Source of the DNA: a virus
Lineage: Duplodnaviria; Caudoviricetes
Direction: 5' to 3' (one strand)
DNA: 64,000 nt
Virus record (IMG/VR): IMGVR_UViG_3300013426_000014
Span: 128,001-192,000 of that record
Part shown: positions 1 through 64,000 of the stretch, one piece after another
How positions within the stretch are numbered: position 1 is the first letter of the stretch
How the letters are laid out: each line of letters opens with the position of its first letter
The notes under the pieces: generated by a model
What the model was told of the DNA's origin: nothing
Seen by the model: the letters and a program-made list of their open reading frames with translations, nothing else
Databases searched by the model: none
Made by a program: the position numbers and the translations under genes

Positions 1-1234
1 CACTCCTGGTCGACTCGACTTCCCTGACGAGTGAGTTGTACTCCTTCGAGTTGAATGTCGCCTCCAGCTGCTTGTTTATCTGCACTACCTCCAAGTCGTC
101 GGCGTTGATCACCGGCGCGTTCGGCGTTATAGCTGCCGTCGCCAGCACGGTGTTGCTTTTCGCGTCGTCCATCCACTTCGCGCCGAGGTCGGTGACGTAC
201 CGCCTGTAATATTCGGCGAACGTCATGTCACCGCCGTCGAGCGTCAGCTCGTTCGTGATGAATGATACCGGGTCTGACCACTCGTGTGAGACGACATTGT
301 AGTCGTCGTTTATCGCCTTGAAGTAGACCGTGTCGATTTCGTCGAAACCGAATCCGACGTCAACGGTTTTCGTCTCGAACGGCGCGTTGTAATAATGGAA
401 CGCCCCGCCGACCGCCGGCTGGTCGTAACCGGTGTTATATTCGATCCTGATCCTCGACAAGTCCTTGTCTATGTCCTTGATTTTGAACAGACTATCCGCG
501 TAACGTACAAGCGATCCCTTCGACAGCGCGTAATCATTGCCGGTCATGTTCCCGTTCCTGTCTATCGCGTTGTACATGATTGTGTCCAGGTAGTATCACA
601 GATCCGTCCCGCCGTCACCCACCGCCTCCGCGGATTGTATTGTGAATTCACCAGTGAATTTCTCATATCCCATCGGCAGGTCGACTGTGTCGTAATCCTC
701 CGAATATGATATTTCCGACCCGTTCAGGAGCGTTATCAGATCCGGATACGGCAGGTTTCTGCCCAGTATGTTCTGTGTGTAAAAATCAGTGTATTCCGTC
801 GACAGTATGACCCTATTGACGATGACCCGGTCCGCGTCGTCGTCGATTTTCCCCTTGAGATCGATCTGGACCTTGCATTTCGGGAACATCAGGTCCTCGA
901 ATATCCAGTTGCTGTCTGTCACGAATGATACCGGCGTCTCGACTCCCTCTATTTTCGCCGGTGCTTTCGGGACCGTCGTCACCTTGACCCGCCTGTATGT
1001 CGAGTCATCTGTCTGCACGACGCCGTTCCCCTTGACGAACGCCGCCACCGTGTTCTCCGCCCGCTGCAGGCGCGTTATGACGCTCGAATATGACGGGACC
1101 GTCACGCCGTCGATGGTGACAGAGTCTGATTCGGAGAACATTGACTCGTTTATCGCGTTCAGCGCCGACATCGCGTTATTGACATTCGCGGTCAGCCGCT
1201 CCGTGTTCTCGCTCAATGAGTTTATATTGGCCAT
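1..1234 (-). CDS. Putative virion structural protein, runs off window start; one TGA=Trp at 596-598
   Basis: ORF MANINSLSENTERL... continues in frame through TGA (DLWYYLDTIMY...) to position 1; GATAAATAT late motif at 1257-1265. Confidence 0.65.
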
Positions 1235-1256
1235 TGCCCTTGTCTTACTTTACTGA

Positions 1257-1265
1257 ATATTTATC
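1257..1265 (-). promoter_or_regulatory. Late promoter motif GATAAATAT (T4 TATAAATA-like)
   Basis: Exact 9-mer about 23 nt upstream of the ATG; recurs upstream of many structural genes. Confidence 0.7.
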
Positions 1266-1336
1266 GACCCGACACGGCCGGAGCAAAAAAAACCGGAAAC
1301 ATCTTTAATAATATATTCGGTTAAAATACAGATAGG

Positions 1337-2938
1337 ATGAACCAGCAGACAGAGACGATTATATATCATTATGCGCTCGCCAATCCAGAGCTCGCGCTTA
1401 AGATAAAACCCGACTTTTTTGACGCGAAATATCTCCGTGAGCTTTTCGAGATAGGACGTGATTACTCGATCAAGTACCACAGCGCGCCGACGGCGGACCA
1501 GATGAAGCAGCTTGTCACCATTGCCGGCAAGCAGGACAAACTGCCGGCGGACGTCATTGACATTATATACGCGCAGAAACGTGACATGTCTCAGTATGAC
1601 GAGACATGGCTGTATGACACGACGACGGCGTGGGCGCAGTGGGAGAATTTCACCGCCGCCGTTATCGATTCCGTGCAGTTCGTCAAGCTGCATAATGACG
1701 AGATAACGGCGGAGAACGTCAGGGAGTATACAGAAAAGGCGAAGGGAACGTTCAACCGTAACGCGATAATGGAGTTCGGCGAGCAGGACAATGGGTCAGA
1801 TTTCTATGACGCGGCCGCGCATAAGCCGTCGCAGCTCGTTCACTCGCCGACTGGTGTCGATTATATAGATAAATGCCTTGCCGGCGGCGGATGGCCGGGC
1901 GCGCTTATCGGTTTCGCCGGCGCGCCGAAGATAGGAAAGTCGGTGTGGCTGCAGAACTTGTGCGCCGCATCTGTCAAAGCCGGGCAGGATTCATTGTACG
2001 TGTCGCTTGAGCTGCCGGAGGAGATGATCATACAGCGTATCGGATCAAACCTCCTTGGCATTCCGTCTGGCGATTACAGCAAGATGGCGGAGGATGAACA
2101 GTATATGAAGGATAGGATCCGGCAGTTCAGGGAGTCGAATCTCGTCCCACCGGGACGTCTCGTTGTCAAGAGTTTCCCGACGTCGACGCTGACGTCGATA
2201 GAGTTCGAGGCGTTTATACTTAAACTGGAGGAGGAGTTTTCGACGTCAGACAAGCCGTTCAAGTTCAAGAACATATATCTTGACTATATCAACATCATGA
2301 AGAATTATCGGAATCCTAATTCCGAGAACACCTACATGAAAATTAAGTGTCTCGCGGAAGATGTCAAGGCGGTGGCGATAAAGAACGACTGGTGTGTGTA
2401 CACGGCGACGCAGACGAACAGGGGACAGTTCGACCAGACCGACATGACCGCCAATCAGATTTCGGAGTCCGCCGGTTTCGGCGCCACGGTTGACGCGTTG
2501 TTCGGAATTATCGCCGACCAGATACAGAAGTCACAGGGCATCTACTTTCTAAAATGTTTGTACGACCGCGTCTATCCGATGGACAACACCAGAAAGAAAT
2601 TCAACTTCGACAAGCGGTATCTCAGGATAACAGAGGATATGGAGTCACAGATCGAGACCGCGGAGGATATATACAGATCCGTTACCGTCCCGGGATTTAA
2701 TGAGAACATGCGCCGTGGCGGCGGTCCCGGATCGGATCGTCAGTGGAGTGAGCACAGGGAACGCGCGGCGTCTGTCCCGGTCGCCCCGTCATTCGGTGAT
2801 TCCGCCCCGCTCACACTCGATACCGGTCGGAACGGCTCCGACCTGACGCAGACCGCAGACGATTTCGACGCGCAGGGATCCGCTGCCGCGGTGTTCAACC
2901 AGACGCCGCCTATTTATACTGGCGCCGGATTGTTTTAG
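1337..2938 (+). CDS. dnaB: Replicative DnaB-family helicase (T4 gp41-like)
   Basis: Walker A GAPKIGKS, YVSLELPEE, LDYINIM, TATQTNR and ISES motifs; TAG stop; no TGA. Confidence 0.9.
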   Translation: MNQQTETIIYHYALANPELALKIKPDFFDAKYLRELFEIGRDYSIKYHSAPTADQMKQLVTIAGKQDKLPADVIDIIYAQKRDMSQYDETWLYDTTTAWAQWENFTAAVIDSVQFVKLHNDEITAENVREYTEKAKGTFNRNAIMEFGEQDNGSDFYDAAAHKPSQLVHSPTGVDYIDKCLAGGGWPGALIGFAGAPKIGKSVWLQNLCAASVKAGQDSLYVSLELPEEMIIQRIGSNLLGIPSGDYSKMAEDEQYMKDRIRQFRESNLVPPGRLVVKSFPTSTLTSIEFEAFILKLEEEFSTSDKPFKFKNIYLDYINIMKNYRNPNSENTYMKIKCLAEDVKAVAIKNDWCVYTATQTNRGQFDQTDMTANQISESAGFGATVDALFGIIADQIQKSQGIYFLKCLYDRVYPMDNTRKKFNFDKRYLRITEDMESQIETAEDIYRSVTVPGFNENMRRGGGPGSDRQWSEHRERAASVPVAPSFGDSAPLTLDTGRNGSDLTQTADDFDAQGSAAAVFNQTPPIYTGAGLF

Positions 2939-2990
2939 AAAAATGAGTGACAGCCGTTTATATAATATTTAGAAAAATGATTAGATATGA

Positions 2991-3458
2991 ATGGGTGTCA
3001 AACTAAATAAACTTTTCAACTCCGGCTGAAACGCGGTCGATTATGGTGAGGAACGGTCGAGAAACGCCGACATAGCGGTGCTGCCGCTCGTCAGTGACAT
3101 GTACGAGGAAAGCACGACGTCCGACATAACGGGCGTCATCACACGGAAGAGTATGAACGAGGATATGTACAGGGTGTTCACTGCGTCGCCGTGATTTGAG
3201 AAGTATTCGGAGGATGGCAGACGCGTCGACAAGAAAGACATGCCGTCTGTTTATTTTTACTTTCGAGACGAGATGATGAAGAAGAACGACTACAATCTCG
3301 TTGAGGTGCTGTGCGCGATATGCGAGTTTTTTGACCTTAATTATTCGTATATGTATAATAATGTGCTCAGCCTTGCCGATAAGTCGAAGGTTCTCGAAAT
3401 ACTGGAGGACGATTACGGGCTGTCGGACAGATTCGGCAAAACGAACAGGCTGTTTTAA
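2991..3458 (+). CDS. Hypothetical protein, 155 aa, 2 TGA=Trp
   Basis: ATG 2991 MGVKLNKLFNSGWNAVDY... is in frame with track ORF 3240-3458; TAA overlaps the next ATG. Confidence 0.7.
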
Positions 3459-4561
3459 TGGAGATGTCTTTGAAACATATTGACATGACGGACGTCAAAT
3501 ACGCCGTACTCATATCGGACGTGCATCTCGGGTGTAGGAACGCGAGTATAGAGTGGATTGATAACATCACCTTGTACATGCGTGATTTTTTTGTGCCGCT
3601 CGTCAGGCGGACGGCGGTGAAAGGCAAGACGATCGTCATTGTCGCCGGCGACTGATACGATAACAGGCTGTCGATTGACATAAACGTCATGAACAGGGGG
3701 ATGGATCTAATGCGCGGCATCGCGTCCGTCGCTCCGGTGTACATGATAACAGGAAACCATGACGTTTATAAGAAGAACGGAAACGACGTCAACTCGATAC
3801 GGTATCTCGGCCTGCTCGACAATGTCACGGTCGTCGAGAACCCCACGGTCATGGATTTCGATAGGATGAGATTCCTGCTGTATCCTTGATCTGGTGATAT
3901 CAAGAAAGATACCGATTTCATATCGGCTGTCGACGGTGTCGATTATATGATCATGCATGATGATGTCAAGGGCCAGACGTATGACAACGGACGCAAAATA
4001 TTGTCAGGTCTGGATGCAGGCGTGTTTTCTGGCAAAGGAATATATTCCGGCCATATACACAAAAGGCAGGAGAACGGAAGGGTGACTTACATTGGATCGC
4101 CTTATCAGCTGCGTCGGTCAGATATAGGGAACGTGTGCGGCGTGTACACGCTCGACGTCTCTGATGATGATGTCGTCCGGACGTTTGACGCGAACACGGT
4201 CAGCCCGGAGTTCATAAAGATACGGCTCGATGATGTGCTCGACCTGCCGTACGGCGCAGTCAAGGGGATGATGACCGGCAATTACGTCGATTTTGTTGTT
4301 CGGAAATCCGCGCTTGTGTCGGTTTGCATGGCAGATATGATGCGCGCGCTTGATTCGGCCGGCGCGAAGAAGGTCCGCGTCGTCGTTGAGCAGGATGTTG
4401 ACCCGTCTGTGTCAGATACTGTGACGAAAGCTGTGACTGTCGATGACATGATTAAGAAAAAGATTGATGCGTTCGACTTGTCGGACGAGCAGAAAAAAAC
4501 GATACTTGACTTGAACGGCCGGTATATGACGGCGTTTAATGAGATGTCGATCAGCGAGTAA
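3458..4561 (+). CDS. Recombination endonuclease subunit (T4 gp47/SbcD/Mre11-like metallophosphoesterase), 367 aa
   Basis: Three track fragments join via TGA at 3653 and 3887; motifs SDVHLG, AGD(W)YDNR, GNHD, YP(W), SGHIHKRQ, YIGSPYQ. Confidence 0.92.
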
Positions 4562-4575
4562 AAAAACGGAATTAT

Positions 4576-13094: not shown

Positions 13095-16000
13095 TTATGA
13101 TAGTGTCGCGCTCACAGTGAAACCGCCATACTCAGAATTGAGCAGGTTCCCGCCGAGATCTGTGCCGGTCCACGCGGCCGGATCCGCGCCGGATTTGACA
13201 TATAGGATATTGCCGCCCGAATTCCTGCCGTTGTAACCGGCCGTACTCGTGCCCTGACCGAACGGGAATCATCTGCCATTGTTCCGCTGTCCGATCACAG
13301 GGGCAGAGGCTGATCACATGATCGTCTTCATGTCGAGATTGTTCCTGAACGCATTGTAAGCTATAGCGACGCCTGCCGGTAGACTGAGCGTCTTTATCGT
13401 CGGCAGCGCGCCTGGCGATCAGTTCGAATTCTCAGCAAACGCCTCGATACCGATAGTTTTGAGCGATAATGACTTAGATAAATCTACCGTATCGAACATA
13501 TTTGAGTTAAACGCATAATCGCCAATCGTCTCGAGATTTACACACTCGTCAAGATTACATTCGGTGAACACCCTTTCGATTGATGTCATGCTGAATGCGG
13601 TGTTCCCGATCGTGACAACCGATGTCGGAAGCTTGACAGATTTAAGGTTATTGCATCCCATCATGAAATCATCCGGAATGGCGGTCAGACCAGACGCCTT
13701 CAGATCCGCGTCCGTGACAGTCGTTCTCCTGAATTGCTGACTTCCCGTCAGTTTTATCGATTTCGCGATTTTAAGCGATCCGACCATCGCGCGGAGAAAT
13801 CCATTGCTCTGTATTTCGGTGAGATTCTGAAAATGCGTATCATCTACCACAAAATCCCTTTGTGACAAGCTTCCATCAGAAGATATCCTCGCGTACGAGC
13901 TCATCGATCCCGGTCCGATCACATTGATACTATATAAGTCGTCATCTTCTGCCGCGGCGCCGCACAGCACGACCGTTATCACGCCAGAATCGTTCCTGTA
14001 TATGAAATTCGTCTCTTTCCCTGACAGACGCGAGCTGAACACAGGATTCGCAGCGTCAACCTTGACCGTTCGGATCTTTGACCCAAATGGTGTGATTCCG
14101 ATTGACATAATGCTCGCCGGCAGAGACACGTCGTCGATTTTCGCCCCGCCGTCATATGCATATTCAGACACGAATGCGTAATCGCCTATCGTCTCCACCC
14201 CGTTCTCGAAATCAATCGATCGAATCGACGAGCACTCCGTGACCGCCTCCCTTTCAACCGTGCGCAACGATGACGGAAATATGAATCCTGTAAGGTTCGA
14301 CAAGTTCATTATCGAGTTCCGGCGTATCATCTTGAGATTTGTCAGCGACCGCAAATCGGCGACACCATTTCAGTTCTGGTTATGCAGTCCGTCATTGTTA
14401 TTGTCTTCCGGTGTACTGCCGAATGACACAAATGAATTGTAACACAATGATTCAGTAATATCAGGAAGGATTGTCGAGCCGCACGTGCACACCGTCCCGC
14501 GTTTGTCCCATCCGCTCGACATGTTGGAATAAGTGTCGTTCGCTGCCAGTATGAAGTTCCGGCCGCCGATCCGCTTGCCGTCGACGACGGAGTCGGATCC
14601 ATAAAATTCCGTATTATCCGGATCGACCGTTATCGTCTCGACTGTCGAGCAATATGCAATGATGCCAGAACCGATGGATGTCACAGACGCCGGGATGTGC
14701 AGTGTCTTGATGCCTGAAAACCAGAACACACCGTTTCCAATTGTCTTCACCGTATTCGGTATATCCAATTTTTCCAGTGACATGCAGGATTGGAACGCAT
14801 TTGATGATATCGTCTCGAGACGTGGATACCGACCGAAAGTGATGTTCGTCAGATTCTGACAATTGCTGAACGCGTAATCCTTTATGATGGTGACATTGTC
14901 CTTTATATAGAAGTCCGTAAACTTCGGCGCCTCATATCCATTATCATTCTGTCCGAACGCGTACCTCCCGATTGATGTGACAGTCGCCGGGATTTCTATT
15001 TGCTCAAGCTGGCTGCAGTCAGCGAACATATAGTCAATGATCTCTGTGACATTCGTGAACTTCGCGAACTCATTGAATGTTTTGATATTGGATCTCCGGA
15101 ATTTGGTGCCGATCATAGACGTCGTGAATTCCTCCGCGTCTGTCAGCGTTATGTATGTGCGCCCGTCATCCCAGTCTATGAACACGGTCGGGTCATTCTG
15201 CCGCGCCGTCCGTATGATACCGGCGAGAATATCAAACACCTCCGGGTTGGTATCCTGTGTAAGCAGTATGTTCGGATCCATCATGACCGTGTCGATCGTC
15301 TTCGTGCACAGCTCGCTGCCGTCGTATTTCTTCGTAAACTTGAACCCACAATATCCATTTATATAGGTCTCGCCGCTCATCGCGCCGTCGATCTGTGTCA
15401 CCGTGACGCCGCCGTAAAATTTGTCGTCTGACTTGATCGGCGTCACGTCGGCCTTGCCTTTGAACTCATCTGACATCACAAACTCCACGTCAAACTCGCC
15501 GGTGACGGCGGTGTTGTCGCACCGCCATGTGAAACGGGCGGTCGACCCGCTTATCGATGACGGGCCGGTCACGGTCAAATCTGATTCGGTCGGATACGTT
15601 TTCCGTCTGACCGTCACATTCATGTAGCTGGAATCTGAAATCGGCTCGTCCCCCTCCGCGTCATTGACTGACCGCATCGTCGCCGTAATCCTGACCGTGA
15701 CGTCGCCATTTTCATTATCCTCCACCGCGGTAAGCACATGTGTCGATCTGTTGAACGTCAGTCCCTCGCGACTGTTTGACACGAATATGTTCGAATCATC
15801 CGCGCTTATGCTGGCGGGCGACATCGAATACTGTACGGCGAACTCCCTGTGCATCTCAGCGACAGGTATGAACGTCACCGCCGTATATTCGGCGCTCGAC
15901 CCGTCAAGCAATTCAGACGGGCCGGATATCACGATCTTCGGCGAATTCGCCGTGATGAACAGTCCGCGGCCGTAACTTGACTTGTCAAACACGTTCTTGC

Positions 16001-19000
16001 CGTATATCGCCTGTATCTTCGCGATCTGCCCCGCGTCCGGGACGGACGACAACTGTATGAATCCGGTCAACGTCAATGACTTCATCCCGGCGCCGAACTC
16101 AACGAGCGCGTCCGGCGACACACCGTCCCATGATATGTTCGACACATTGAGTGTGCATTCCGAGTTGGGAATGTTGTTCGTGACACGGGCGTCATGCCAC
16201 TTGCGGAAGAACTGCCATGATGACTGTAACGTCGGACAGTTCCTGACTGTCATCGATGTCACATTCTTGCCTCCACCATCTTCGCCGAGCCGCAGGCCGG
16301 ATAATTCCAGCTTCGTCAGACCGGAGAAGTTGACGGTCGTTATCGAATCCGGCAGGACGACCTCTGTGAGCGGCGCACCGTCGGCGAACCTTATTGACGT
16401 CAGGCCGGACTCTGCCGCCCAGAATTTCTTAAGGTAATTCAGCTTGACCAGATCCGCGCCGATGTCCTTAAGCCCGGTGAATCCCGTTATGTCAAGCTCC
16501 TCCAGTGACGCGAGACTTCCGAGGCCGGAATAGTTCGTGCCCTGAAGACCGGTGTTCCGTATCCCGCTCTTCGTGTGGTCACCGAGATACAGCCGCCGCA
16601 TCTTTGATCCAAGGTCGGCATTCCACGCGCCGCCAATGTTCAGACGCGTCAGCGCATAGCTCGAACCGTCCGACCCCTGACTGACGAGATTCCTGAGGTC
16701 AAGCTCCTCGATGTTTCACGGGTTGTACACCGCGACCGGCGAGCCGACCTGAAGGGTCATGTACAGCTCGAACCCGTGTCGCGTCTCTGACTCCGGCCTG
16801 ACATTGCCGTCGGCGTCGACTGATCCGTTCGCGTAAAGGTGTACGCCTGACTCCTGCACGCGGTTGTTTGTCCCGTACGCGAAATATGCGTCGTTACCGG
16901 ACGTTATGTAGAACTTCGTCCCTATCTGTACGGCCGGCGCGAGGAACGTGATCGCCTGTTTCTTGTAACTCTCGTTCATGAACAACGCGTCATAATAGTC
17001 GAAACGGTGTGACAGTCACCAGCGCCTGTGTGTCTTTCTTGAACCCTGCAGCGAGCCAAGGTAGTTCTCGTTGTCGGTCAGATACGAATCGATGTACTTG
17101 TACTCCGCGTCGATGTTGAACACCTTCTCTGGTCACTGCCCGCTCTGCAGGTTCTCGAACATGTTGAGCACGCCGCTGTATGTCAGGCCGGCGTTGTTCA
17201 GCGCGCTGTCGACCGCCGGAACTATCGACTTCATGAACTCGTCGTCTGCCTCCAGACAGTTCCACAGCGTGGACTCGCGGGCAGCATAGCAGAAGTCGTT
17301 GATCTCATTATCGAAACTGTTCCTCGTGATCTCTGGCCCGTACTTGAGCAGACCGTCGTTCCTGACGCCGAGTATGGTGTCGTTATCATAATTGATGTAG
17401 TACCAGTGCTGTCCGTCCTCTGACGTGAACATCGCGTTCTTGACTGTCTGATCGACGGCGGCGAAACGTATGAGATAGATGTAATATGCCGCTATCTTAT
17501 ACATGTCGAAGTGCTCCCACTTCTCCGCCGCGAAACGGTCGGGATTTTTCCAGCTTATTATCTTGTTGTAAACGTTCGCCTCCGACTGAGCGAAATACCT
17601 GTTCGTCGTCCGCGTCCCCGCCACCTCGTTTCCGTTTTGGTCCTTCTCCACATATACGTAACCTGAATCCTTGTCGTCGAAATATATGTACGGCGACGGC
17701 TCGACCCTCCCCGTGAGACCGTCCTTGTGATAAAGCGTGGTCTTGAACTCCGATATTTTGCCGGCGGCGTATAGTGTCCTGAATTCTGTTATCAAATCAT
17801 CCGTGATCGGATTGTTCATCGCGCTGTCAGTGAACAGCCGCGGCTTGTCGAGGACCGTTCCGTCCTCGTTTCGCGGCGTGAGCGACAACTCTTCCACATG
17901 GGCACTGTTGCCAGACAGTTGACTCGGCAATACCTCGTCGAACACGGCGTACGTGACGACGTCAGGCACATTGTCGCCCTTTATCTCGCGCTCTATCACA
18001 CAGTCGTTCCTTATGCCGCACATCCATTTCGCGAACGGCAGCACATACTTCTCCCATCTCAGGAACGCGTCCGGCCTTGTCTTGACCCCGGTGTCGGTAT
18101 CAAGTTCATAACCGTCAGACGTCAGTCCATCCGGCTGATCGTCTGGATACCTGGCCTCGAAACCGCGTGCCCAACCAAACGTCTCGATACCGGCGTCATA
18201 GTCATCCCACCCGTCTATGTTCTTATACAGCGCGATGTCATTACCGGAGTCGATAAGCTCTCAACACTGCATCGTGTCCTTGTACTTGAGCGTCCGCGCC
18301 TCGTCCGCCGAAACGGATCCGCCCAGCGCCGCGGAATATTTGACCGGGTCGACGTCGATGACCGAATCGTCGAACGACCACTGTTTCTCCGGCGGAACTT
18401 CAACGTTCTTGTCGTAATTGAGTGAATGCTCCCAGTCGACATCACAGAACCCGAACACCGCCTCATTCGACTTGTCATTGTTGAAATTGTACTTGCCCAT
18501 GAACACCAGATCAGATTTCTCGTCCTTCTGGTAGAACATGACGATAGGGAATCCGTCGACCGTCGTCCTGACATCATATCCGAAGCCGTTCGCGTCCGCC
18601 ATCGTCTGTGCCTTTGTCCTCAGCACTGTCTCATTGTTTGCCGACTGTGATGCATTCTGCTTCACGATAGCGAGACCGGTCCACATGTATGTCCCATCTT
18701 CGTATTTCTTTACAGGCTTATTCGCCTCGACCGACGACGGGTCGGTCGACTTGTCCCATATATCAATGCTGTCATCTGACATATAACCGCTAATCACAGT
18801 ATAATCTACCTGCACATAAACGAAACGGTCATACCCATCGATAAGTTCATCTGTCAATATCCCGTCTGCGTTGTATTCCGTAAGCGATTTTGTATCAGTG
18901 ACGCCATCCTTTACACCACATACTCAATAATACGAGCTGCCGATTGCCGGTGTATACGTTACACGGGCATTATATAAGATATTATTCCATAGTCTGGCGA

Positions 19001-23706: not shown

Positions 23707-23708
23707 CA

Positions 23709-25622: not shown

Positions 25623-25643
25623 TCGCCGAATATTATTTCTCAA

Positions 25644-25696
25644 ATATTTATCAATCTGAGCCGTCCGGCCAGCCGGGGCGGAAAACCGATAAATAT
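25644..25696. promoter_or_regulatory. Divergent pair of late promoters (GATAAATAT at 25644-25652 minus and 25688-25696 plus)
   Basis: Two exact motifs facing away from each other between divergent operons. Confidence 0.75.
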
Positions 25697-25717
25697 GCAA
25701 AGAACATAACCCGTAAC

Positions 25718-26059
25718 ATGAAGAGACTGATTATTTTCATATTGTCCGCTGTGTTGCTCGCCGCGTGTGGGCCGGGGAACAAGGTGAACACCGGGACGGA
25801 TCCGGTGGCGTCGTCGATGCGGCTCGTTGAGTACAGGATGATCGGTCCATGACAGATCGACTCGATGATGACGGCGGAAAGACTGCCGGAAATCGAAAAA
25901 TGGACGCGGACCCTGCTCGTGTCGGATGAGACGAAAGATCCGGTGGAGCAGTGATTGACGACAATGAAGACAGACTCGACAAAGACCGACTTCACGCTGA
26001 CGCGTCTCGCCACGGCAGACACGTCGATGCTATACAGAAAGATAATATACAGATGGTAA
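25718..26059 (+). CDS. Lipoprotein, 113 aa, 2 TGA=Trp (absent from track)
   Basis: MKRLIIFILSAVLLAA-CGPG lipobox; TAA overlaps the next ATG. Confidence 0.75.
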
Positions 26060-29900: not shown

Positions 29901-30241
29901 GCGGGATTGTACTTTCCCTTGATAAAATCGGGACGGCGTCATGGACGGACGGCAGCACCCCATATAAAAAAGGTCAGAACATCAGGATAAAGACGGATGA
30001 CGGGACCGCCGTATACAAGGTGACGGAGAATAAATCCGGAATCTTGACAGCGCGCGGCCGTGTGCCCCTTACCGTAAGTCAGAAAGCGGCGGTGACCTAC
30101 CAGTCCGTGGTCACGGAGATGATGACGGCCGGCGTCGATGCGGCAGAAGAGACATCTGACGGATACTGTGTCGTATTCACAGACGGATCACCGGCGGTCC
30201 CGTTTATCGATGACACATTCTCGATGATTGTTACGGATTAG
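26960..30241 (+). CDS. Large baseplate/tail structural protein, 1,093 aa, 6 TGA=Trp
   Basis: Six track ORFs in one frame joined by TGA; PYAGTYKALVNAVKFMGY resembles wedge/tail protein I motifs; TAG stop 11 nt before the inverted repeat. Confidence 0.7.
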
Positions 30242-42000: not shown

Positions 42001-42200
42001 TATGTGGTTGACCCCGCCGCGTGCGCCTTCGGCGTCGTCGTGTTGCCGCCGAACATAGTGCCGTTCGCGTATATTTGGCCGGTGTCGGCGATGAACGTCA
42101 CCGATGTCGCCGGTATGTTTGATTTTTTCGCGTTGAACTTATCCGTCGTCGGGAAATAAAGGAAAACGGTGTTATCGCCTATTTTGTTTGTGACCGCCAT
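39027..42200 (-). CDS. Tail fibre protein, 1,057 aa, 4 TGA=Trp, with an internal 163-aa duplication
   Basis: Four track ORFs in one frame; LGHVTA, GIVQLTDS and YGHVKL fibre repeats; late motif at 42242-42250. Confidence 0.8.
40910..41473. repeat. Direct repeat, about 75-bp identical cores at 40910-40984 and 41399-41473 (489-bp period)
   Basis: ttatcgtcggcactgtgtacttcgtgtcgttctccgtggtgacggatgagtcggtcaactggacgattcctgccg occurs twice. Confidence 0.9.
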
Positions 42201-44201: not shown

Positions 44202-44310
44202 ATCTGGATGTTTTTTTTTTCTGTTTGAAAAAACGGCGGAGCGGATTACCCCGCCGTTATGATATTTATCCGATGTTTCGCGTTATGATGTGAAACACCG
44301 TTGTTTCATT

Positions 44311-45954
44311 TTATTCGCCGGTCACGACGATCCATTCCATCTCTGTTTTCGTCACATAATCGGCCTTGCTCTCGTACGCCATGTCGCCAAGCTTGCCGAC
44401 CGTGGTCACAAGGGATTTTAGCGCGTCCGTCGACGACAGCGTCACCGTGCCTTTTCCGTCGCTTTCCGCCTTGACGAGCGTCTCGCCGTCTGCCGTCTTG
44501 ACGCCCTTCACGAACGTCTCGCCGTCTGACAGGTTCGCCTTCAGCGCGTCGAGCGCCGACTTCGTGTCGGTCGCGGTATTCTCCACCGCGGTCAGCCTTT
44601 CTGTCACGCCGCCTTCGCCTGTCACCTTTGTGTCGAGCGCCGCGAGCGCGTCGCTGACCGTTTTGAGATCCGCCGCGCCGACGATGTCCTTCGTGACGAG
44701 CACGCCGCCCTCTGTGAACTCGAGATGTTTCTCATCTTCCGACAGCCTTATCGAGATCGTCTTGCCGTTGACCGCGACGCCGTTGCCGGCCGTGTACACG
44801 TCGATGAGCGACGTCACGTCGAGATAGATCACCTTATTGCTCTCCGCCGCGTTGAATTTGAACTCGACGAACGTGCCCGATGTCTTTTCGTTGACAGGCT
44901 TCTCCGCCGTCGCGACCACGAGATTGACATCCTCGAGCATGCCGTCCTTGATGAAGTCGGCCGCGTCAAATTCGCTGATTACAGCGTCTCCGGCGCCGAG
45001 AAGTTTCACCTTCTGATCAGCGTATGCGATTTTGATGTTTGACTTGAGACCGTCTGCTGTCTGTGTCAGGACCTTCTCGCCTTCGGCGATGCCGAGTTTG
45101 ATTGTTGTTGTCTCGTCTTCACCGGTGACCACAGACACGGCGTTACCCGTCTCACCCTTGATCTCCTTCGTCTTAGGCGCGGTGACATAAAGCCCGCCTT
45201 CCGCGTCGAGCTTGAGTGCGTTATCCGCGTCCGCCTTGATGTTGACAGACACCGTCCTGCCGTCCGCGCCGATCGTCACGGATTTGTCGCCCGTGATCTT
45301 GACCGCGTCTATCTTGCCGGTAAGCTCAGTCTTCGCCGCCTCGATCTTGTTGTCGACCGATCCGGTAACATCCGCCGCGCCGTTGATTGTGCCGATTTTC
45401 TCATTGATCGCCGCTATTTCGTCCTTGTTCGTCGACACGTCTTTCTTGACGTCAGACACGGACTGCTGCAGATCCGCGATGTCGCCGGCGACATCACCGG
45501 ACGCGGAGCTCTGCGCGAGCTTCATCACCGTCCCGACGCCCGACACGATATACGCGCCGGCGTCATACTTAGTCTCGTCGATCGTCTCCGCAGACTTGAC
45601 GTATATGATCTGACCGACATTGTCCGCCGTCGCGAGACTTATCGCCTCCGTGTAGTTCTCCGCGGTGACGGAGCCGAGCCCTTTGCCGGCGCCGACCTCC
45701 TCGAGCGTGCTGTTGGCGAGGATTTTGTAGATTTTGACCTCGTCGTTCTCGACCACTGATATGATCTGTCCGATATACCGTGTCTTACCGATTCCGCGTT
45801 CGTCGGATCCGTCGCCTTTTGCGTAAGCGACCGCGTCCGCGTAACTGTTGAACCATCCCGACCGGTCGATCGGGAATTTACCGGTACGCTGGAACGACAT
45901 CGCCCAGTCAAGCTTGTTACCGTCGATGATTAAATCTGTTGTATAGTTTGCCAT
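44311..45954 (-). CDS. Coiled-coil fibre-like structural protein (FIKDGML family)
   Basis: DAADFIKDGMLEDV; N-terminal FQRTGKFPIDRS. Confidence 0.65.
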   Translation of the reverse strand: MANYTTDLIIDGNKLDWAMSFQRTGKFPIDRSGWFNSYADAVAYAKGDGSDERGIGKTRYIGQIISVVENDEVKIYKILANSTLEEVGAGKGLGSVTAENYTEAISLATADNVGQIIYVKSAETIDETKYDAGAYIVSGVGTVMKLAQSSASGDVAGDIADLQQSVSDVKKDVSTNKDEIAAINEKIGTINGAADVTGSVDNKIEAAKTELTGKIDAVKITGDKSVTIGADGRTVSVNIKADADNALKLDAEGGLYVTAPKTKEIKGETGNAVSVVTGEDETTTIKLGIAEGEKVLTQTADGLKSNIKIAYADQKVKLLGAGDAVISEFDAADFIKDGMLEDVNLVVATAEKPVNEKTSGTFVEFKFNAAESNKVIYLDVTSLIDVYTAGNGVAVNGKTISIRLSEDEKHLEFTEGGVLVTKDIVGAADLKTVSDALAALDTKVTGEGGVTERLTAVENTATDTKSALDALKANLSDGETFVKGVKTADGETLVKAESDGKGTVTLSSTDALKSLVTTVGKLGDMAYESKADYVTKTEMEWIVVTGE

Positions 45955-45975
45955 GACTTATTCTGTTATGTTAAA

Positions 45976-48066
45976 TTAGGCGATTGTTATTTTATATGTG
46001 TTGGCGCCGAGAGCCGCATCCGGACGGTATACATATGCTGTGTATTCCGCCGCAGCGAATCCGTTCGCGCCTTCGACCTGCACGGATCCTTCTGATTTGA
46101 AAGAATCTTTAATGTCAGTGCCGAATGCGCCGGTGTCTGCCACTTTCGTAATGGTTTTACCGGTCGGAACAACCACATACACAGCATTCGTCCCCTCCGC
46201 GATTGACACGGTGATCTCACCGGTCGTCGGAGCGACATTGTTGCTGAGCGCCCTGACGTTCGCGGAGTTGAGCTCGATCGCCGACGGTTTCGCGCCGAGG
46301 AACCAGTGCCGCTCGCCGGTCACAGTTCTATTATCGCTCTTTGTCGCCGCCGATACGGCCTTGTCTGTTATCGCCGCGATGGCGGTCGTCTTGTGCTCCT
46401 CGCTGAAATGACCGATATTCGAGCATACGTATTTTGACGGGATTCCGTCACATGAGATTGTGTACGCCTCCGACTTCACGTCGATTTTCACGGTGTTCGC
46501 GCCTTCGCCGACAGTCAATCCGGTCTGCGCCGCGATCGACTCGGCCGCCGCCGGAGCAGTAGCGCCGTTGAAACCTGTGTATGTGACAGTGACGTTCGCG
46601 GCCGCGGTCACTGCCGGTGTTCCCCATTCTTTCGTGATAGATTTCGCCGTTGACTTGTTCGTTCCGGCCGCGTCGTCCGCGTATCCGTACGTGATGCCCG
46701 TTACAGCAGATCCGACCTTCTTCCATGTTGCAGACGGCTTCGCGATCGCCGAAAGGTTGACCTTTGTCCCGACCTCGACTTTCGATCCGGCCTTATCGAG
46801 TGCGCCGCCGGATATGGCTGTCGTTATCGACGCCGTTCCTGGTGTGGACGTCGGTACCGGATACTCTTCTTTGCAGAGCAGCTGCGTCAGTATTTCCTGC
46901 AGCGATGTTCCCGCCGGGATCTTGCCGTCGGTGAACATCGACGGCTCCGCTATACCGCCGCCGACCAGAATCTCCTCTGTAGTCACCGTCATCGCGGTGT
47001 CCATGTCCTTGACTGATATCTCGTTAGCGTCACTGATCGCGATGTGATCACCAGCCGTGTATGTCGTCGCGTTGAAATCCGCGAGTGACACGAATGACGT
47101 CTTCTTCTCGCCGGTCGTCTCGCCGTCGATGTTCCATGTGAACTTGAGACCCTTCGCGCCGTCCTGTGTCGTGACCTCAACACTATCAAGCATTCCGTCG
47201 ACGATGAACGGCGTCGCGTCTATTGAACTGCCGATCACCGCGTCATCCTTGCCGGTCAGGCTTATCGTCTTCTTGTCACCATCATACTTAAGCCCGATTA
47301 CGGTCTCGAGCCCGTTCGCGCCGGCCTTGAGCACCTTGTCGTCAGAGTTGAGCTTGAACGACACGGTCGTCTTGTTCTCGACCGTGCTCGCGTCGATCAG
47401 TCCGGATCCGACGACCTCACCGGTCTTCGGCGTCTCGACATAAAGCTTGCCGCTCTCGTCGATCTTAAGCGCGTTGTCGCCTTCCTTGACACTGCCTTTC
47501 GTCAGGATGTCGCCGTCTGTCACCTTCTTGTTGACCGCGTCGACACCGGCCTGCGCCGCGTCTGCCGCCGTCTTGGCCTCTTCCGCCGCAGTCTTTGCCT
47601 CTGCCGCGGCGGTCGAAGCCGCCGACGCGTCGGCCTTTGTCGCGAACTTCTCGTCAGCCGCCGCCACGGTGAGCAACTCTCCCTTTTCGAGCAGCGCCTT
47701 GATGCTCTCTATCATCGAGAACTCGAACGCGTCAAGTTTTGCCTTGTCGTCTTTCGACATCAGTCCGGCGACGCCGTCCGGCGTGCTCGCGTCCTTGTCC
47801 GCCTTGACGTACGGGATATAGATGTAACCTTTGCTGCCGTCCGCCTTGGTGAACTCTATCGCGCCCGCCGCGTTATCCGGCTTGTCCGCGTCCGTGATAC
47901 CCGCAACGTCTGACATGTACGCGAGGTTCTGGATCCCGGAAACCTGCGACGACACGATTTCCTGCCCGTGCATGAACACGGTCGGACGGTCGTTACATAC
48001 ATAGATTCCCGCGCCGTGTGTCTCGGCGTTGTATCCGGCGTATGCGCCGTAAAAGAACTGAATCAT
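45976..48066 (-). CDS. Fibre-like structural protein (FIKDGML family) with a C-terminal beta domain
   Basis: DATPFIVDGMLDSV, AGLMSKDDKAKLD; late motif at 48126-48134. Confidence 0.65.
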   Translation of the reverse strand: MIQFFYGAYAGYNAETHGAGIYVCNDRPTVFMHGQEIVSSQVSGIQNLAYMSDVAGITDADKPDNAAGAIEFTKADGSKGYIYIPYVKADKDASTPDGVAGLMSKDDKAKLDAFEFSMIESIKALLEKGELLTVAAADEKFATKADASAASTAAAEAKTAAEEAKTAADAAQAGVDAVNKKVTDGDILTKGSVKEGDNALKIDESGKLYVETPKTGEVVGSGLIDASTVENKTTVSFKLNSDDKVLKAGANGLETVIGLKYDGDKKTISLTGKDDAVIGSSIDATPFIVDGMLDSVEVTTQDGAKGLKFTWNIDGETTGEKKTSFVSLADFNATTYTAGDHIAISDANEISVKDMDTAMTVTTEEILVGGGIAEPSMFTDGKIPAGTSLQEILTQLLCKEEYPVPTSTPGTASITTAISGGALDKAGSKVEVGTKVNLSAIAKPSATWKKVGSAVTGITYGYADDAAGTNKSTAKSITKEWGTPAVTAAANVTVTYTGFNGATAPAAAESIAAQTGLTVGEGANTVKIDVKSEAYTISCDGIPSKYVCSNIGHFSEEHKTTAIAAITDKAVSAATKSDNRTVTGERHWFLGAKPSAIELNSANVRALSNNVAPTTGEITVSIAEGTNAVYVVVPTGKTITKVADTGAFGTDIKDSFKSEGSVQVEGANGFAAAEYTAYVYRPDAALGANTYKITIA

Positions 48067-48207
48067 ATGTTCCTGTTTTTATTTTTCTGTTTTTCTGTTT
48101 CCGGTACGAGCCGGAAATTTCCGCTATATTTATCAAAAAAGACACGCGCGAACACGTGTCTTTACAAATAGATGATATATTCGTTGTTTTGTCTATCCGA
48201 TATTCTT

Positions 48208-48630
48208 TCAATTGAGATTTTCCTCTATCAGATTGACTTTATTCTCGACCGCGGTGAGACGCATGCCGAACGTGTCGAAGTCGCCCACTGACGCGGACCA
48301 CAGGTTTTTCAGGTTCCATTCTTTTTTGCCTTCGGATCCGTCGACATATTTGACCGTCAGCACGCCGTTGTCATAGTCGAGATTAACGTCTTTCACGTAA
48401 TTTTTAAGCACGGCCCGGATTTCCGCGACGCTGTCGTCCAGCGTCTGTATCTTACCCGGCACGCCGGCGAGCTCTGCCTTCAGCGTCTTGCTGATATTTC
48501 CATATGATCCGCCGTTCATCCAGATTTCCTTCGTGTCCGTCGCGAAATACACCGCGTTGGTGTACTTTTCCCTGTTGACCGGGTTCTTGTAATCCTCCAG
48601 CTTGCCCCTGTAAAAATTTAATGTCGCCAT
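48208..48630 (-). CDS. Small fibre-associated structural protein
   Basis: FYRG...AVYFATDTKEIWMNG resembles the N-termini of neighbouring fibre genes. Confidence 0.6.
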   Translation of the reverse strand: MATLNFYRGKLEDYKNPVNREKYTNAVYFATDTKEIWMNGGSYGNISKTLKAELAGVPGKIQTLDDSVAEIRAVLKNYVKDVNLDYDNGVLTVKYVDGSEGKKEWNLKNLWSASVGDFDTFGMRLTAVENKVNLIEENLN

Positions 48631-48654
48631 ATCTTGTAGATCGTTATTCTTGAT

Positions 48655-49833
48655 TTATTCGCCGTCGATCTCGGTGTCCCATCCGCTATCGCCGCTGTCA
48701 TCCTTCCAGCTCATGCTCGAGTCGATTTTCTTGACGACCTCCGTTATCTTCTCCTCGATTTGCGGGTCGGTTGTCACCGTCTCCGACACGATGCTCGTGA
48801 TCGTCTCCTTCGTCGTCTCGGACTTGATTTCGGTGTTGACAATCTCTTTTATCTTGTCGTCCGAAGGCGCCGCGGCCGCGGCTTCCTCCTTCGCTATTGT
48901 CCGGATGTCGTCTGCCGACGGTATTTCCGGCATGTTCGCGTCATGGACCTCTTTCGCGAGATCCTTTATATGATCGTCGGTCGGCACTTCCGGAATGTCA
49001 ATCGCGGCGACGGCGGCGGCGATTGCCTTGTCCGATTCGGATTTAGTGACGAAACCTTTATCCGCGATTATCGTCTCGACTTCATTCGCGTCGACAAGGT
49101 TTTTAACATCGTCTTTGGTCACGAGACTGTCAAGCTCGGCTTTGGTGGCGAGACCGGCGATTTCGTCTTTCGTCGCGAGACCGTCCAGTTCGTCCGCCTT
49201 AACAAAACTTGCAGTTTTCTCGTCGATCTTCTTGTCGACGTCAGACCCCTTCACGAAATCTTTGACATCATCGGCTGACACCAGATTCGCGTTTTGTATC
49301 GCGTCGTTGACCGCGTCGTCGAGCTGATCCTTCGTCACGACGTTGTTCCCGACCGTCTGTTTGACGATTTCGGTAATCGTCTCTTGTATGATTTTGTTAT
49401 TTTGTATCTCAGATATGACAATATCGGATACGGCGCCGGCGGCGATCTGCTCGATTCTTGAATCAATCTCGCGCAACGACGGGATTATCATCGGGTCCTC
49501 CCCGTTCACCCCGCCTATCGCGAGAATCATGTCGTAATGATCTATTTCTTTGAGTTCCTTGCCGTCCTCAACAACATGTACTTCATATGGCACGACCGCC
49601 GGCTCACCCGGTCTGAGCGGCGGGCGTTTCTTCTTTATGATATCGACCGCGTCGTCGAGATCATTCGCGGTGTTCTTATATGCCATAAATTGGATGGCCG
49701 GACGCTCCATCGGACGGCCCGGCTTTTCCGGACACGCGCACATGAAAAAATTATCGGAATAACCCGTATTATTTGCGGATCCGGTTCTCGCCGACATGGC
49801 GGACTCCGGCGTGCCGCAGTTTTTGCAAGCCAT
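48655..49833 (-). CDS. Coiled-coil structural protein with LATKxE repeats
   Basis: Acidic helical repeats (LATKDEIAGLATKAEL); late motif at 49859-49867. Confidence 0.6.
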   Translation of the reverse strand: MACKNCGTPESAMSARTGSANNTGYSDNFFMCACPEKPGRPMERPAIQFMAYKNTANDLDDAVDIIKKKRPPLRPGEPAVVPYEVHVVEDGKELKEIDHYDMILAIGGVNGEDPMIIPSLREIDSRIEQIAAGAVSDIVISEIQNNKIIQETITEIVKQTVGNNVVTKDQLDDAVNDAIQNANLVSADDVKDFVKGSDVDKKIDEKTASFVKADELDGLATKDEIAGLATKAELDSLVTKDDVKNLVDANEVETIIADKGFVTKSESDKAIAAAVAAIDIPEVPTDDHIKDLAKEVHDANMPEIPSADDIRTIAKEEAAAAAPSDDKIKEIVNTEIKSETTKETITSIVSETVTTDPQIEEKITEVVKKIDSSMSWKDDSGDSGWDTEIDGE

Positions 49834-49982
49834 TATCAACGCGTTTTATGTTTTCTGTATATTTATCATCCGGGACCCGGAATTTGATGAAAAATAAAAC
49901 AGCGACGGACGGTATATAATATTCAGACGGACGGGTTGTTCGTCACGGTTTATAAGTTTAACTTTCTAAAACAGGTTTACAG

Positions 49983-59256: not shown

Positions 59257-59285
59257 CGGCTACATCAAATTTGTTATAAAAACCC

Positions 59286-59317: not shown

Positions 59318-59344
59318 GTTGTAATGGTCGGTTCCGACCCGTTC

Positions 59345-61048: not shown

Positions 61049-61052
61049 TGCC

Positions 61053-61970
61053 TTATGCCTTTTCTATTTTGCCGGACGCCGATATGATTCTGAGATCACA
61101 TCTGCCGTCTTCGTCTGTCCCGGCGCAGACGAGCGTCAGCTGTGTCACCTCCGCGTCGGATTTCATCACTTTCACGCTGATGCCATCATTAAGCCTAACA
61201 ACGAAATCGGATTCCGTTTTTGGGTTGAATATCAGGCTGACCGTGTCACCCTTCGACATCCCCCGCGGGCAGGCCGGTAGTTCGTTGTCTATCTTCAGAT
61301 ATCTCGCGCCGCCGACCTCATAATACCTGAACTTCTCGCCCTTCACCGTATCGGCATAATCGGCCTTGCGGCGGAACTTGTCCGGATCATAAGACACTTT
61401 CGTCATGTAGTATTTGAGCGGATATGTATATGACACATCGGCGTCGAGCGCGGCGAGGTATCTGTTCGCGTCCGCCGCCGTCAGCGTCGCCGGCGTCGTC
61501 GACACCGCGACCACCGTGGATTTCTGCTGCTCCACCGTCACCGGCCTTGCCGTTCTCATCGACTGGCCGGACGTCCCGCCTGTGCCGTCGTTGAATAGAT
61601 GTGCGAGCGTCAGCGCTTTGTACAGCTCGCCGATGCTCGAGTCCATCGCGGTCATTACGTCCTTCAGAGATCTGCCAGTCCCGTCGTCATATGTTACGTT
61701 GCCGATTCCCACCGTTATGTTGTCTGTGTTCTTGATAGTCAGCTGACCATCACAGATTAAATTTTTGAACTTACCGGTGTCACCCTCCACCTTGCCTTCT
61801 GTGTGTACTGGCACTTTCACGTATCCGTCCGTCCCGTCCGACCCATATGACAACACCGCGTCGAGCAGCGCCATCAACGCGTCGTTATTGCCATTGCTTA
61901 TCGACGGGAGCTCGCCGATCAGCGTCGACTGGTGAAGCTGTTTCAATTCCGGTCTTGTAAAATTAGGCAT
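61053..61970 (-). CDS. Hypothetical late/structural protein
   Basis: 305-aa ORF; late motif GATAAATAT at 61996-62004. Confidence 0.65.
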   Translation of the reverse strand: MPNFTRPELKQLHQSTLIGELPSISNGNNDALMALLDAVLSYGSDGTDGYVKVPVHTEGKVEGDTGKFKNLICDGQLTIKNTDNITVGIGNVTYDDGTGRSLKDVMTAMDSSIGELYKALTLAHLFNDGTGGTSGQSMRTARPVTVEQQKSTVVAVSTTPATLTAADANRYLAALDADVSYTYPLKYYMTKVSYDPDKFRRKADYADTVKGEKFRYYEVGGARYLKIDNELPACPRGMSKGDTVSLIFNPKTESDFVVRLNDGISVKVMKSDAEVTQLTLVCAGTDEDGRCDLRIISASGKIEKA

Positions 61971-62063
61971 TTGTCATTGACCTGTTTACGTTTGTATATT
62001 TATCGGTCCGGAATAAAACCGCCGGCGTCCTAATAAAATATTTGATTTGATAAAATCTTGCGT

Positions 62064-63539
62064 ATGATTATAAACAGAGAGATACTGACGGGTTGCGACC
62101 CGGACGGGAACGTGACGAAGACAGAGCTTATCAGCTATGTCGGTGCTGACGGGACCGTCAAGTTCCTTAACTATCCGATACCGAAGGACTGGTGGTTCAA
62201 TTGGAGCTACTCGAAATACGGCGACAGATCCGCGGATCCGTACTACCGGTCATGGGACGGCAAGCCGGTGACGAAACGGTTCCTCGACGACAACAGAGAT
62301 ATATGCGAGAACAGGGAACATGAGATACTGTGCTCGATGGTGAAGGCTTATCCGCAGATGTCTGTCTTGTACGATATGAACATACCGACCACCGCGTTCA
62401 TAGATATTGAGGTCGAAGTCGACGGGACCGGTTTCCCTGAGCCGTCGAAAGCTCAGTCACCGGTGACGACGATATCTTACGTTGTCGGCAACGTCGTGAC
62501 AGTATTCGGCCGCGCCGTCTTGACCGACGACCAGATATCTGGCATCGCGAAGAAGGTGAAGGAACACACGGAGCGTTTCGGTGTCGACTACACATTTATA
62601 TATAAGTATTACCGGAACGAGTATGACATGCTGGAGGATTTCTTCTTTAATTATGTGAAGAATATTCCGGGGTTGACCGGTTGGAACCTGTTCGGTTTCG
62701 ACTGGCCGTATCTGTATAACAGGTGCAAGAACATCGGACTGAACATAAAGAATATTTCGCCGACCGGCAAGTGGACGAAGCACAAGGTGCTGAAATCTGA
62801 GATAACGGCGGAGATACCGATGCACAAGGTCATATACGACTATCTTGAGATATACAAGAAATGGGACAGGACTGTCGAGGTGAAGGAGAACTCAACGCTT
62901 GATTTCGTCGCTTCCGCCGCACTTGGCGTTACAAAAGTGAAGCATAGTCTCGGCTTTCAGGATATGTGGGAGCAGGAACCAGACAACTATGTGTTTTATA
63001 ATGCGATAGACTCGGTTCTTGTTGCGGAGCTCGATAAGAAGATCAAGACGTCGAAAACTATGTACGCGCTCGCAAATCTGACGCATGTCGATCTGCTGAA
63101 CAATATATCGCCTGTACGTACAATCGAGATTGTTCAGTGTGAGTATGCTTGGATGGACGGCAAGGTTTTTCCCAACGTCAAGAACAACGCGGTGAAACAG
63201 GATTATGAAGGCGCGTATGTGTATCCGACGATACCGGGTATTTACAGGAACATCCTTGCCCTTGATTTTAACTCTCTGTATCCGACTACTCAAAGACAGT
63301 TCAACATTTCCCCTGATACGTTCATCAAGAAAGACAAGTCGTACACGCCGGAAGCGGACGAGATCAAGACTGTTTCCGGCGCCGTGTATAAGCGGAACGA
63401 GAAGGGACTGCTGCCTAAGATACTGACCGACTTTTACGCGAAAAGAAAGGGGTTCAAGAAAGTCATGATGGCGGCGGACGACGAGATCAATTATCTCGAG
63501 AACGTTTATGAGCGGCGCACAAGCAAAGCGATGTCATAA
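62064..63539 (+). CDS. Family B DNA polymerase, N-terminal part (3'-5' exonuclease plus motif A), split gene
   Basis: ExoI FIDIEVE, ExoII GWNLFGFDWPY, ExoIII YNAIDS, YEGAYV, motif A LDFNSLYP; TAA occurs before any KxxxNSxYG or YGDTDS motif. Confidence 0.9.
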   Translation: MIINREILTGCDPDGNVTKTELISYVGADGTVKFLNYPIPKDWWFNWSYSKYGDRSADPYYRSWDGKPVTKRFLDDNRDICENREHEILCSMVKAYPQMSVLYDMNIPTTAFIDIEVEVDGTGFPEPSKAQSPVTTISYVVGNVVTVFGRAVLTDDQISGIAKKVKEHTERFGVDYTFIYKYYRNEYDMLEDFFFNYVKNIPGLTGWNLFGFDWPYLYNRCKNIGLNIKNISPTGKWTKHKVLKSEITAEIPMHKVIYDYLEIYKKWDRTVEVKENSTLDFVASAALGVTKVKHSLGFQDMWEQEPDNYVFYNAIDSVLVAELDKKIKTSKTMYALANLTHVDLLNNISPVRTIEIVQCEYAWMDGKVFPNVKNNAVKQDYEGAYVYPTIPGIYRNILALDFNSLYPTTQRQFNISPDTFIKKDKSYTPEADEIKTVSGAVYKRNEKGLLPKILTDFYAKRKGFKKVMMAADDEINYLENVYERRTSKAMS

Positions 63540-64000
63540 TGACTGATCCGGGAACAGACGAAAAGATTATCGGTTACATCACCGGTAAGGACGGCGGTAT
63601 TGTTCGGCAGCGCTGCTCAAAAACAGCGCTGTTGAATCATGGTTATTTTGACTATATCACAGCCCGGTATCCGGATATTGACTGGACCGACGAGAAGTCC
63701 GCGCTGAAGGAGTCTCTGTATAGATTGCGAAACGGTATAGAGATATGTCCGGTTTGCCCGGTGTGCGGCAAGCCCGTCAGGTTTGACACCGGCAACAAGA
63801 TGTATCCGAAATGGTGCTCCCCTAAATGCAGGAACAATGATCTGTCCGTTAAGGAAAAGAATTCCGCCGGCGTTTCTGCCGCGCTCAGGACGGCGTATTC
63901 TGAACACGGCGGTGATATAAAAGCGAAACGTGCCGTCACATTGGGCGAAAGATACGGCGCCGTGACGTCATCCCCGTTTTCCGCCGAATCCGTGCGGAAG
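63539..64000 (+). CDS. Putative free-standing homing-endonuclease-like zinc-ribbon protein, partial (absent from track)
   Basis: ATG overlaps the polymerase TAA; MTDPGTDEK...CPVCPVCGKPV...WCSPKC...TLGERYG; open to window end. Confidence 0.55.
   Translation, partial: MTDPGTDEKIIGYITGKDGGIVRQRCSKTALLNHGYFDYITARYPDIDWTDEKSALKESLYRLRNGIEICPVCPVCGKPVRFDTGNKMYPKWCSPKCRNNDLSVKEKNSAGVSAALRTAYSEHGGDIKAKRAVTLGERYGAVTSSPFSAESVRK

Follow-up and report, generated by a model that had tools for sequence, protein, structure and literature searches.

The question raised by this locus is how a phage reads TGA, a codon that interrupts half of the genes called in the region studied, and what decodes it. The window analysed here, a stretch of 64,000 nt, comprises bases 128001-192000 of the linear, 269,322-bp IMG/VR virus record IMGVR_UViG_3300013426_000014, whose completeness CheckV estimates at 87%; GC content is 50% in the whole genome and 52% in the window. 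The initial annotation, made from the letters of the window, had proposed opal recoding, with TGA as tryptophan (Trp), in a phage whose probable host uses the standard code and which supplies the decoding machinery from elsewhere in its genome. The comparisons presented below support TGA as Trp, and suggest that the codon is most likely decoded by a phage tRNA-Trp(UCA) whose gene contains a group-I-type intron.

Long open reading frames (ORFs) are restored only when TGA is treated as sense. The longest ORF in the window, 781 amino acids (aa) under code 11, is again 781 aa with TAG as sense, but 1326 aa with TAA and 2839 aa with TGA as sense; TAG and TAA were rejected, since neither gave an ORF gain comparable to that from TGA. 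Greedy ORF tiling of the whole genome gave 372 ORFs with a mean length of 212 aa under code 11 and 239 ORFs with a mean length of 351 aa under code 4, in which TGA is Trp; code 25, in which TGA is glycine (Gly), gives an ORF map identical to that of code 4. Genes were called under code 4 by a simple codon-usage scorer, and the TGA counts that follow are approximate because the caller over-extends some N-termini (with, for example, two spurious TGAs upstream of the C1 peptidase described below) and missed a third giant ORF. TGA occurs in these calls at 3.5 per 1000 codons in frame, compared with 31-34 per 1000 in the two off frames. Genome-wide, 263 TGA and 774 TGG codons were counted, TGA thus making up about a quarter (∼25%) of Trp codons, and 98 of 213 genes (∼46%) carry at least one. 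Within the window, in-frame TGA is found in 21 of the 42 called genes (∼77 TGA, 177 TGG), in agreement with the earlier proposal that fragments merge into about 20 genes ending in TAA or TAG, where the ends themselves (33 TAA, 9 TAG) are true by construction of the calls. The recoded TGAs cluster in the window's tail, baseplate and adhesin genes.

The amino acid encoded was examined in alignments with TGA masked as X, leaving no bias toward Trp. Four proteins, listed with window coordinates, bear on the sites that the initial annotation had singled out.

26053..26694, plus strand: C1 (papain-family) peptidase of ∼213 aa with five in-frame TGAs (26071, 26572, 26605, 26617 and 26677), recognised by PDB alignment to the papain/cathepsin NSWGxxWG motif.
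30862..38748, minus strand: BACON-domain adhesin-like protein of 2628 aa with 20 in-frame TGAs, that of the BACON domain at 38590-38592 (Pfam BACON, E = 1.5e-12).
3458..4561, plus strand: gp47/SbcD-like metallophosphoesterase with two in-frame TGAs, at 3653-3655 and 3887-3889 (Pfam Metallophos, E = 1.4e-8).
13095..21599, minus strand: 2834-aa protein with C-terminal BspA-type LRR_5 repeats and 12 in-frame TGAs, including that of an RRWxL motif at 17013-17027 (Pfam LRR_5, E = 2.2e-57).

All five motifs quoted earlier for TGA at Trp positions were located, VGxD with NSxGRNxG at 26566-26622, GDxYDNR at 3647-3667 and YPx at 3881-3889 on the plus strand, and SNQSxCS at 38584-38604 and RRWxL on the minus strand. 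That these are Trp sites of known families held for the C1 peptidase and the BACON protein. Among 51 database homologs of the peptidase, the five TGA columns carry W in 51, 50, 37, 12 and 21 sequences; the remaining residues are F or Y in the 37/51 column, Y in the 12/51 column and mostly aromatic or hydrophobic (F, C, Y and V) in the 21/51 column, and in the five nearest homologs (57-62% identity) every one of the five columns is W. The tryptophans of the papain-family NSW-G-xxW-G motif in the PDB alignment account for two of the columns. The true start of the peptidase gene lies near 26053, so that the seven TGAs first attributed to it become five. The BACON TGA column corresponds to W in the BACON domains of two solved structures, 3zmr_A and 9s8x_A. 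For the gp47-like protein, a PDB sequence search returned no match and the two TGA columns are not diagnostic for Trp, and the CotH label given to the RRWxL protein found no support, as Pfam assigns only LRR families at E ≤ 0.01 and residues 1000-1620 have no PDB sequence match. This protein shows 43% identity to a TGA-recoded relative.

Diverged relatives (33-74% protein identity) gave a similar picture: 24 of 36 TGA codons stand opposite TGG or TGA, as do 34 of 57 of the phage's own TGG codons, and 17 TGA codons are kept as TGA in diverged relatives from independent assemblies. The genes of the relatives translate to database proteins only with TGA as W. Gly is absent from every TGA column, both among the C1 peptidase homologs and in the alignments with diverged relatives, and code 25 was rejected for this reason. 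Since the masked TGA columns align to Trp, which dominates them, and never to Gly, these alignments indicate that TGA behaves as a Trp codon in the phage genome.

The search for a tRNA able to read this codon was extended to the whole 269-kb record. Default ARAGORN reports 33 tRNAs, all on the plus strand at 202.4-222.4 kb of the genome, among them a tRNA-Trp(CCA) and none with a UCA anticodon; neither did ARAGORN with a lowered threshold report a UCA tRNA. When introns were allowed, a single gene changed, becoming a tRNA(UCA) with a 293-nt insert after U34, and no second UCA tRNA was found in 269 kb. Coordinates below are those of the genome, with those of the extracted locus L001 in brackets.

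206860-207225 (L001 6860-7225), plus strand: split tRNA-Trp(UCA) gene, 14.9 kb past the window end, from ARAGORN -i and Infernal half-matches.
206860-206892, plus strand: exon 1 of this gene.
206893-207185, plus strand: 293-nt group-I-type intron.
207186-207225, plus strand: exon 2.
202836-202907, plus strand: tRNA-Trp(CCA), within the array of 33 tRNAs.

The claim that decoding is supplied by the phage from outside the window thus stands as far as the tRNA is concerned; the release factor RF1 and tryptophanyl-tRNA synthetase (TrpRS), which the initial annotation had also considered, were not found, with no RF-1 or PCRF domain and no class Ib synthetase detected in the 269-kb record. Infernal returns the split gene as two sub-threshold halves of 14.5 and 17.4 bits, and default ARAGORN miscalls its 3′ part as tRNA-Cys. 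ARAGORN -i was not relied on alone, as it fuses neighbouring tRNAs into false introns at other loci, and a very lax intron mode produces ∼300 false calls. The halves of the gene comprise a 7-bp acceptor stem, a D arm, a perfect 5-bp anticodon stem, the loop CU-UCA-AA, the T arm GGTTCGAATCC and G73; the joined exons form a 73-nt cloverleaf whose arms are of the Trp type, with G73 as discriminator, and CCA is not encoded. Matches to the D and anticodon arms occur in 47 tRNA(UCA) genes without introns on AT-rich metagenome contigs and in one of another phage. In 46 of the 47 a single D-loop position deviates, a mismatch tolerated by the search pattern, and roughly a third carry one further substitution on the 3′ side of the anticodon stem. 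Because the insert sits between U34 and C35, the UCA anticodon is predicted to exist only after intron removal.

Directly 3′ of the suppressor tRNA lies a gene without TGA (207253-208053; L001 7253-8053) for a DUF7873 protein, which has more than 500 homologs, including some in Lak megaphages. Downstream of this gene, at L001 8246-8328, there is a weak tmRNA-like (transfer-messenger RNA) or T-arm-like match.

Homologs of the DUF7873 gene, which begins 27 nt downstream of the tRNA, were used to fetch the same locus from relatives. Two of these, L146 and L147 (∼81-89% DNA identity at the locus), carry an intron-less allele in which 33 of 33 and 41 of 41 exon bases are identical to those of the split gene and the two exons meet precisely at the junction that was predicted, the BLAST alignment breaking at 6892|7186 of L001. 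Four other contigs (L144-L145 and L148-L149) contain a 333-nt ortholog of the intron in the same tRNA, with 84.6% identity. A 212-nt ortholog, which lacks the AT-rich hairpin of the P1 loop described below, occupies the tRNA(UCA) of a 318-kb relative (L150) and of a Logan contig (L151), and a homologous 200-nt intron follows CUU in the tRNA-Ser(UGA) of the relative L152. The insert in tRNA(UCA) is polymorphic among close relatives, and introns of its family have apparently spread into several tRNA genes of these phages. A search with the 293-nt intron in IMG/VR, INPHARED and 14 distant jumbo phage records (C1 peptidase 35-42% identity) gave T-arm matches only. Much larger versions, group I introns of ∼400-580 nt with a textbook P, Q, R, S core, were observed in the tRNA-Lys(UUU) anticodon loops of two other relatives, L156 (∼1556-2228) and L159 (∼1617-2098). 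Just upstream of the intron-bearing tRNA-Ser of L152, at 10889-11107, there is an Rfam match to permuted tmRNA (48.7 bits, threshold 47).

The architecture of the insert is that of a group I intron. The 5′ splice site follows a U, the intron ends in G, and a GAG guide, conserved in all six intron versions, pairs with the CUU of exon 1, with a U.G pair for the U at the splice site. The core has a P2 hairpin with a GAAA loop, P3, P4-P6, P8 and a P9 with a GUAA loop, and P7, which forms as G(A)GAGUA/UACUCC with a bulged A across the P3 helix, makes a pseudoknot; its G-C pair is changed to C-G in L152. The P1 loop holds an AT-rich hairpin of 75-115 nt, and there is no homing endonuclease inside the intron. 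Covariation was assessed in a four-sequence alignment (A2), with a structure read by hand and derived from one of the four sequences: 91% of cells are paired across P2-P9, including the P7 pseudoknot, compared with 28-47% in slid controls, and compensatory pairs with both sides changed number 22, compared with 2-10 in the slid controls and with none of 500 shuffles reaching this count. The tRNA-Ser intron of L152 matches the Rfam model Intron_gpI (RF00028) over its full length with 48.4 bits (E = 1.4e-11), the gathering threshold of 50 not being reached. The insert is accordingly filed as a putative group-I-type intron by homology and architecture rather than by an Rfam threshold, and self-splicing is predicted for it.

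The scheme most consistent with these data is one in which the phage tRNA-Trp(UCA), from the array 11-30 kb beyond the window end, would read UGA. The 293-nt intron between U34 and C35 would splice itself out, and host enzymes would then add CCA to the spliced tRNA, a step suggested by the lack of an encoded CCA. Charging with Trp would fall to host TrpRS, and the charged tRNA would outcompete host release factor RF2 at UGA, in a host that would itself use the standard code.

Several observations weigh against this scheme. Rfam Intron_gpI gives no match on the 293-nt intron or on its closest ortholog (L150), even in narrow searches, and, with the record ∼87% complete, further decoding factors could lie in the missing part. 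Some of the replication genes, and the neighbourhood of the tRNA array, contain TGA as well, so that the genome does not divide neatly into early genes in the standard code and late genes that are recoded. Finally, the last five codons of genes hold about three times as many TGAs as expected (12 observed, 3.8 expected), which is not the case for TGG (13 observed, 12 expected); some TGAs may therefore still terminate translation, with a TAA or TAG close by as backup. One of these end-of-gene TGAs is a conserved Trp at the C-terminus of the C1 peptidase, and several others directly precede TAA; these could be relics of TGA stops now followed by a second terminator, or codons at which termination still takes place early in infection.

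A rival reading is that the split tRNA(UCA) gene is dead and UGA is read by the near-cognate tRNA-Trp(CCA), by a host tRNA or by a factor in the missing 13% of the genome. The phage does carry a tRNA-Trp(CCA), its genome is incomplete, the 293-nt intron has no Rfam match, and the intron-less alleles in relatives mean that the insertion could be recent. Decay of the gene is nevertheless unlikely, given that neither exon differs at any base from the intact allele, that many compensatory changes keep the intron structure across three lineages, all of which still have recoded genes, and that at least 263 in-frame TGAs need efficient decoding. Reading TGA as Gly or another residue, or treating the TGAs as pseudogenes or assembly errors, can draw on the identical ORF maps of codes 4 and 25, but TGA columns dominated by Trp and free of Gly, together with the 17 sites at which independently assembled, diverged relatives also have TGA, leave these explanations with a negligible probability.

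A host that itself uses code 4, which the phage would merely match, would also account for TGA as Trp, and one homolog-bearing contig is binned in a metagenome-assembled genome (MAG) labelled 'Bacilli', a class with code-4 lineages in GTDB. This is judged highly improbable. The phage has its own tRNA(UCA) in addition to tRNA(CCA), its GC content is 50%, and TGA accounts for ∼25% of its Trp codons. In a survey of recoded phages, the share of genes with a recoded stop was 26-71% where the host uses the standard code and, for in-frame TGA, ∼90% where the host is recoded (10.1101/2021.08.26.457843); the ∼46% of called genes with TGA found here falls within the former range and well under the latter. 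Distant relatives have TAG suppressors instead: five IMG/VR jumbo records of 200-400 kb (L089, L091, L092, L093 and L094; C1 peptidase 35-42% identity) encode tRNA(CUA), and in one case tRNA(UUA), in place of tRNA(UCA), so that more than one stop-codon reassignment occurs in the clade. For three genes, the highest GenBank matches are to Prevotella Lak megaphages (DUF7873 protein 59%, baseplate wedge 43% and large terminase 32% identity). The proportion of genes with TGA, the 50% GC content, the variable code in the clade and the Lak relatives together point indirectly to a standard-code host as the likely one. Its phylum may be Bacteroidota or Bacillota: contigs bearing DUF7873 are mostly in Bacteroidales MAG bins, but a MAG of Bacillota holds the closest of them (72%). 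No relatives emerged when IMG/VR was scanned with a single protein, and an LRR-domain scan of bacterial genomes gave no match.

TGA-to-Trp recoding in gut phages is already established (10.1101/2021.08.26.457843), and the phage described here resembles the code-4 gut phages of the Jade and Agate clades in that study: they too are animal-gut phages with TGA as Trp, a partial recoding of genes biased to structural genes and an expected phage suppressor tRNA. The close relative JS_HB1_S134_scaffold_565796 has a name in the style of the Jade representative JS_HF2_S141_scaffold_159238. Unlike the two Jade genomes, the present record yields neither RF1 nor TrpRS, and unlike the code-4 phages of that study it has 50% GC, in a clade otherwise at 25-39% GC, and a suppressor tRNA split by an intron. 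The Prevotella Lak megaphages (MK250015-MK250029) are likewise large recoded gut phages with many tRNAs, but they are ∼540-550 kb in size and recode TAG rather than TGA, and the low identities point to a distant relationship.

For the intron, the nearest counterparts are the group I introns in anticodon loops of bacterial tRNAs, such as cyanobacterial tRNA-Leu(UAA) and Azoarcus tRNA-Ile (10.1101/2020.01.27.920355). The insertion site, CUU/...g/, is that of the classical cyanobacterial tRNA-Leu(UAA) intron, and the U before the 5′ splice site, the final G, the short GAG guide, the P2-P9 core and the GNRA loops on P2 and P9 are shared. It differs from them in that the host gene is a phage opal-suppressor tRNA, in the drift of the core below Rfam detection and in the AT-rich hairpin of the P1 loop. 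A ribozyme physically coupled to the maturation of a phage suppressor tRNA also has a parallel in the theta ribozymes (like those of hepatitis delta virus) found next to suppressor tRNAs of recoded phages and proposed as a possible lytic switch (10.1101/2023.06.13.544163); those ribozymes cut the 3′ trailer, whereas here the ribozyme-type element lies inside the anticodon. In the library searched, no paper described a phage suppressor tRNA interrupted by a group I intron. What is new here is the suppressor tRNA split by a group-I-type intron; a further unusual feature is that TGA as Trp persists in a 50% GC genome within an AT-rich clade.

Recoded phages must alter the way in which host ribosomes read a stop codon, and a TGA suppressor tRNA has been found in only 35% of code-4 phage genomes (10.1101/2021.08.26.457843). 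A suppressor that is present yet split by an intron, and thus hidden from default ARAGORN and Infernal, offers a concrete and testable reason for this gap. We suggest, tentatively, that split suppressors might explain many of the ∼65% of code-4 genomes that seem to lack one, and that ribozyme splicing might time or tune the switch from the standard code to TGA as Trp, since a UCA anticodon assembled only by splicing could make splicing set the timing or level of that switch. Close relatives with and without the intron provide a natural comparison for the effect of splicing on the code switch.

The genes of the window fall into a group of replication genes (DnaB-like helicase, gp46/gp47-like SbcCD and family B polymerase) and a tail, baseplate and adhesin module. 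In addition to those given above, the following were recorded, with window coordinates.

1337..2938, plus strand: DnaB-like helicase without TGA (Pfam).
4576-6243: SbcC-like gene without TGA (Pfam).
62058-63539: family B DNA polymerase without TGA (Pfam).
21820..25700, minus strand: two tail genes, one of 629 aa with two TGAs and a 663-aa baseplate wedge subunit with one (PHROG 219, E = 2.9e-26).
26960..30241, plus strand: tail-module protein phrog_28177, 1093 aa with six in-frame TGAs, aligned to relatives L024 and L025 across ∼1165-1215 columns.
39027..42200, minus strand: phrog_5181 protein, 1057 aa with four in-frame TGAs (PHROG match).
42351..49839, minus strand: four large TGA-free genes of 616, 547, 696 and 394 aa, whose sole family match is a weak tail-fibre repeat.
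48193-48630, minus strand: small called gene of 145 aa lying among these four, with a single TGA five codons ahead of its stop.

The baseplate wedge is 74% identical to that of L024, compared with the 43% to Lak phages noted above. Outside the window, the third giant ORF that the gene caller missed spans 114607-123225 of the genome on the minus strand, with 2872 codons and 25 in-frame TGAs; its region had appeared as a 6-kb gene-free gap in the gene calls. The large terminase (genome 72296-74407; L013), also outside the window, has a T4-type N-terminal domain with a weak Intein_splicing match ahead of it, at residues 125-161. Within the window, a perfect 158-nt inverted repeat (30253-30410 and 31238-31395), whose two arms are separated by 827 nt, overlaps the 3′ end of the BACON adhesin gene, with weaker inverted repeats nested between its arms, and this region looks like an invertible tail-fibre tip cassette.

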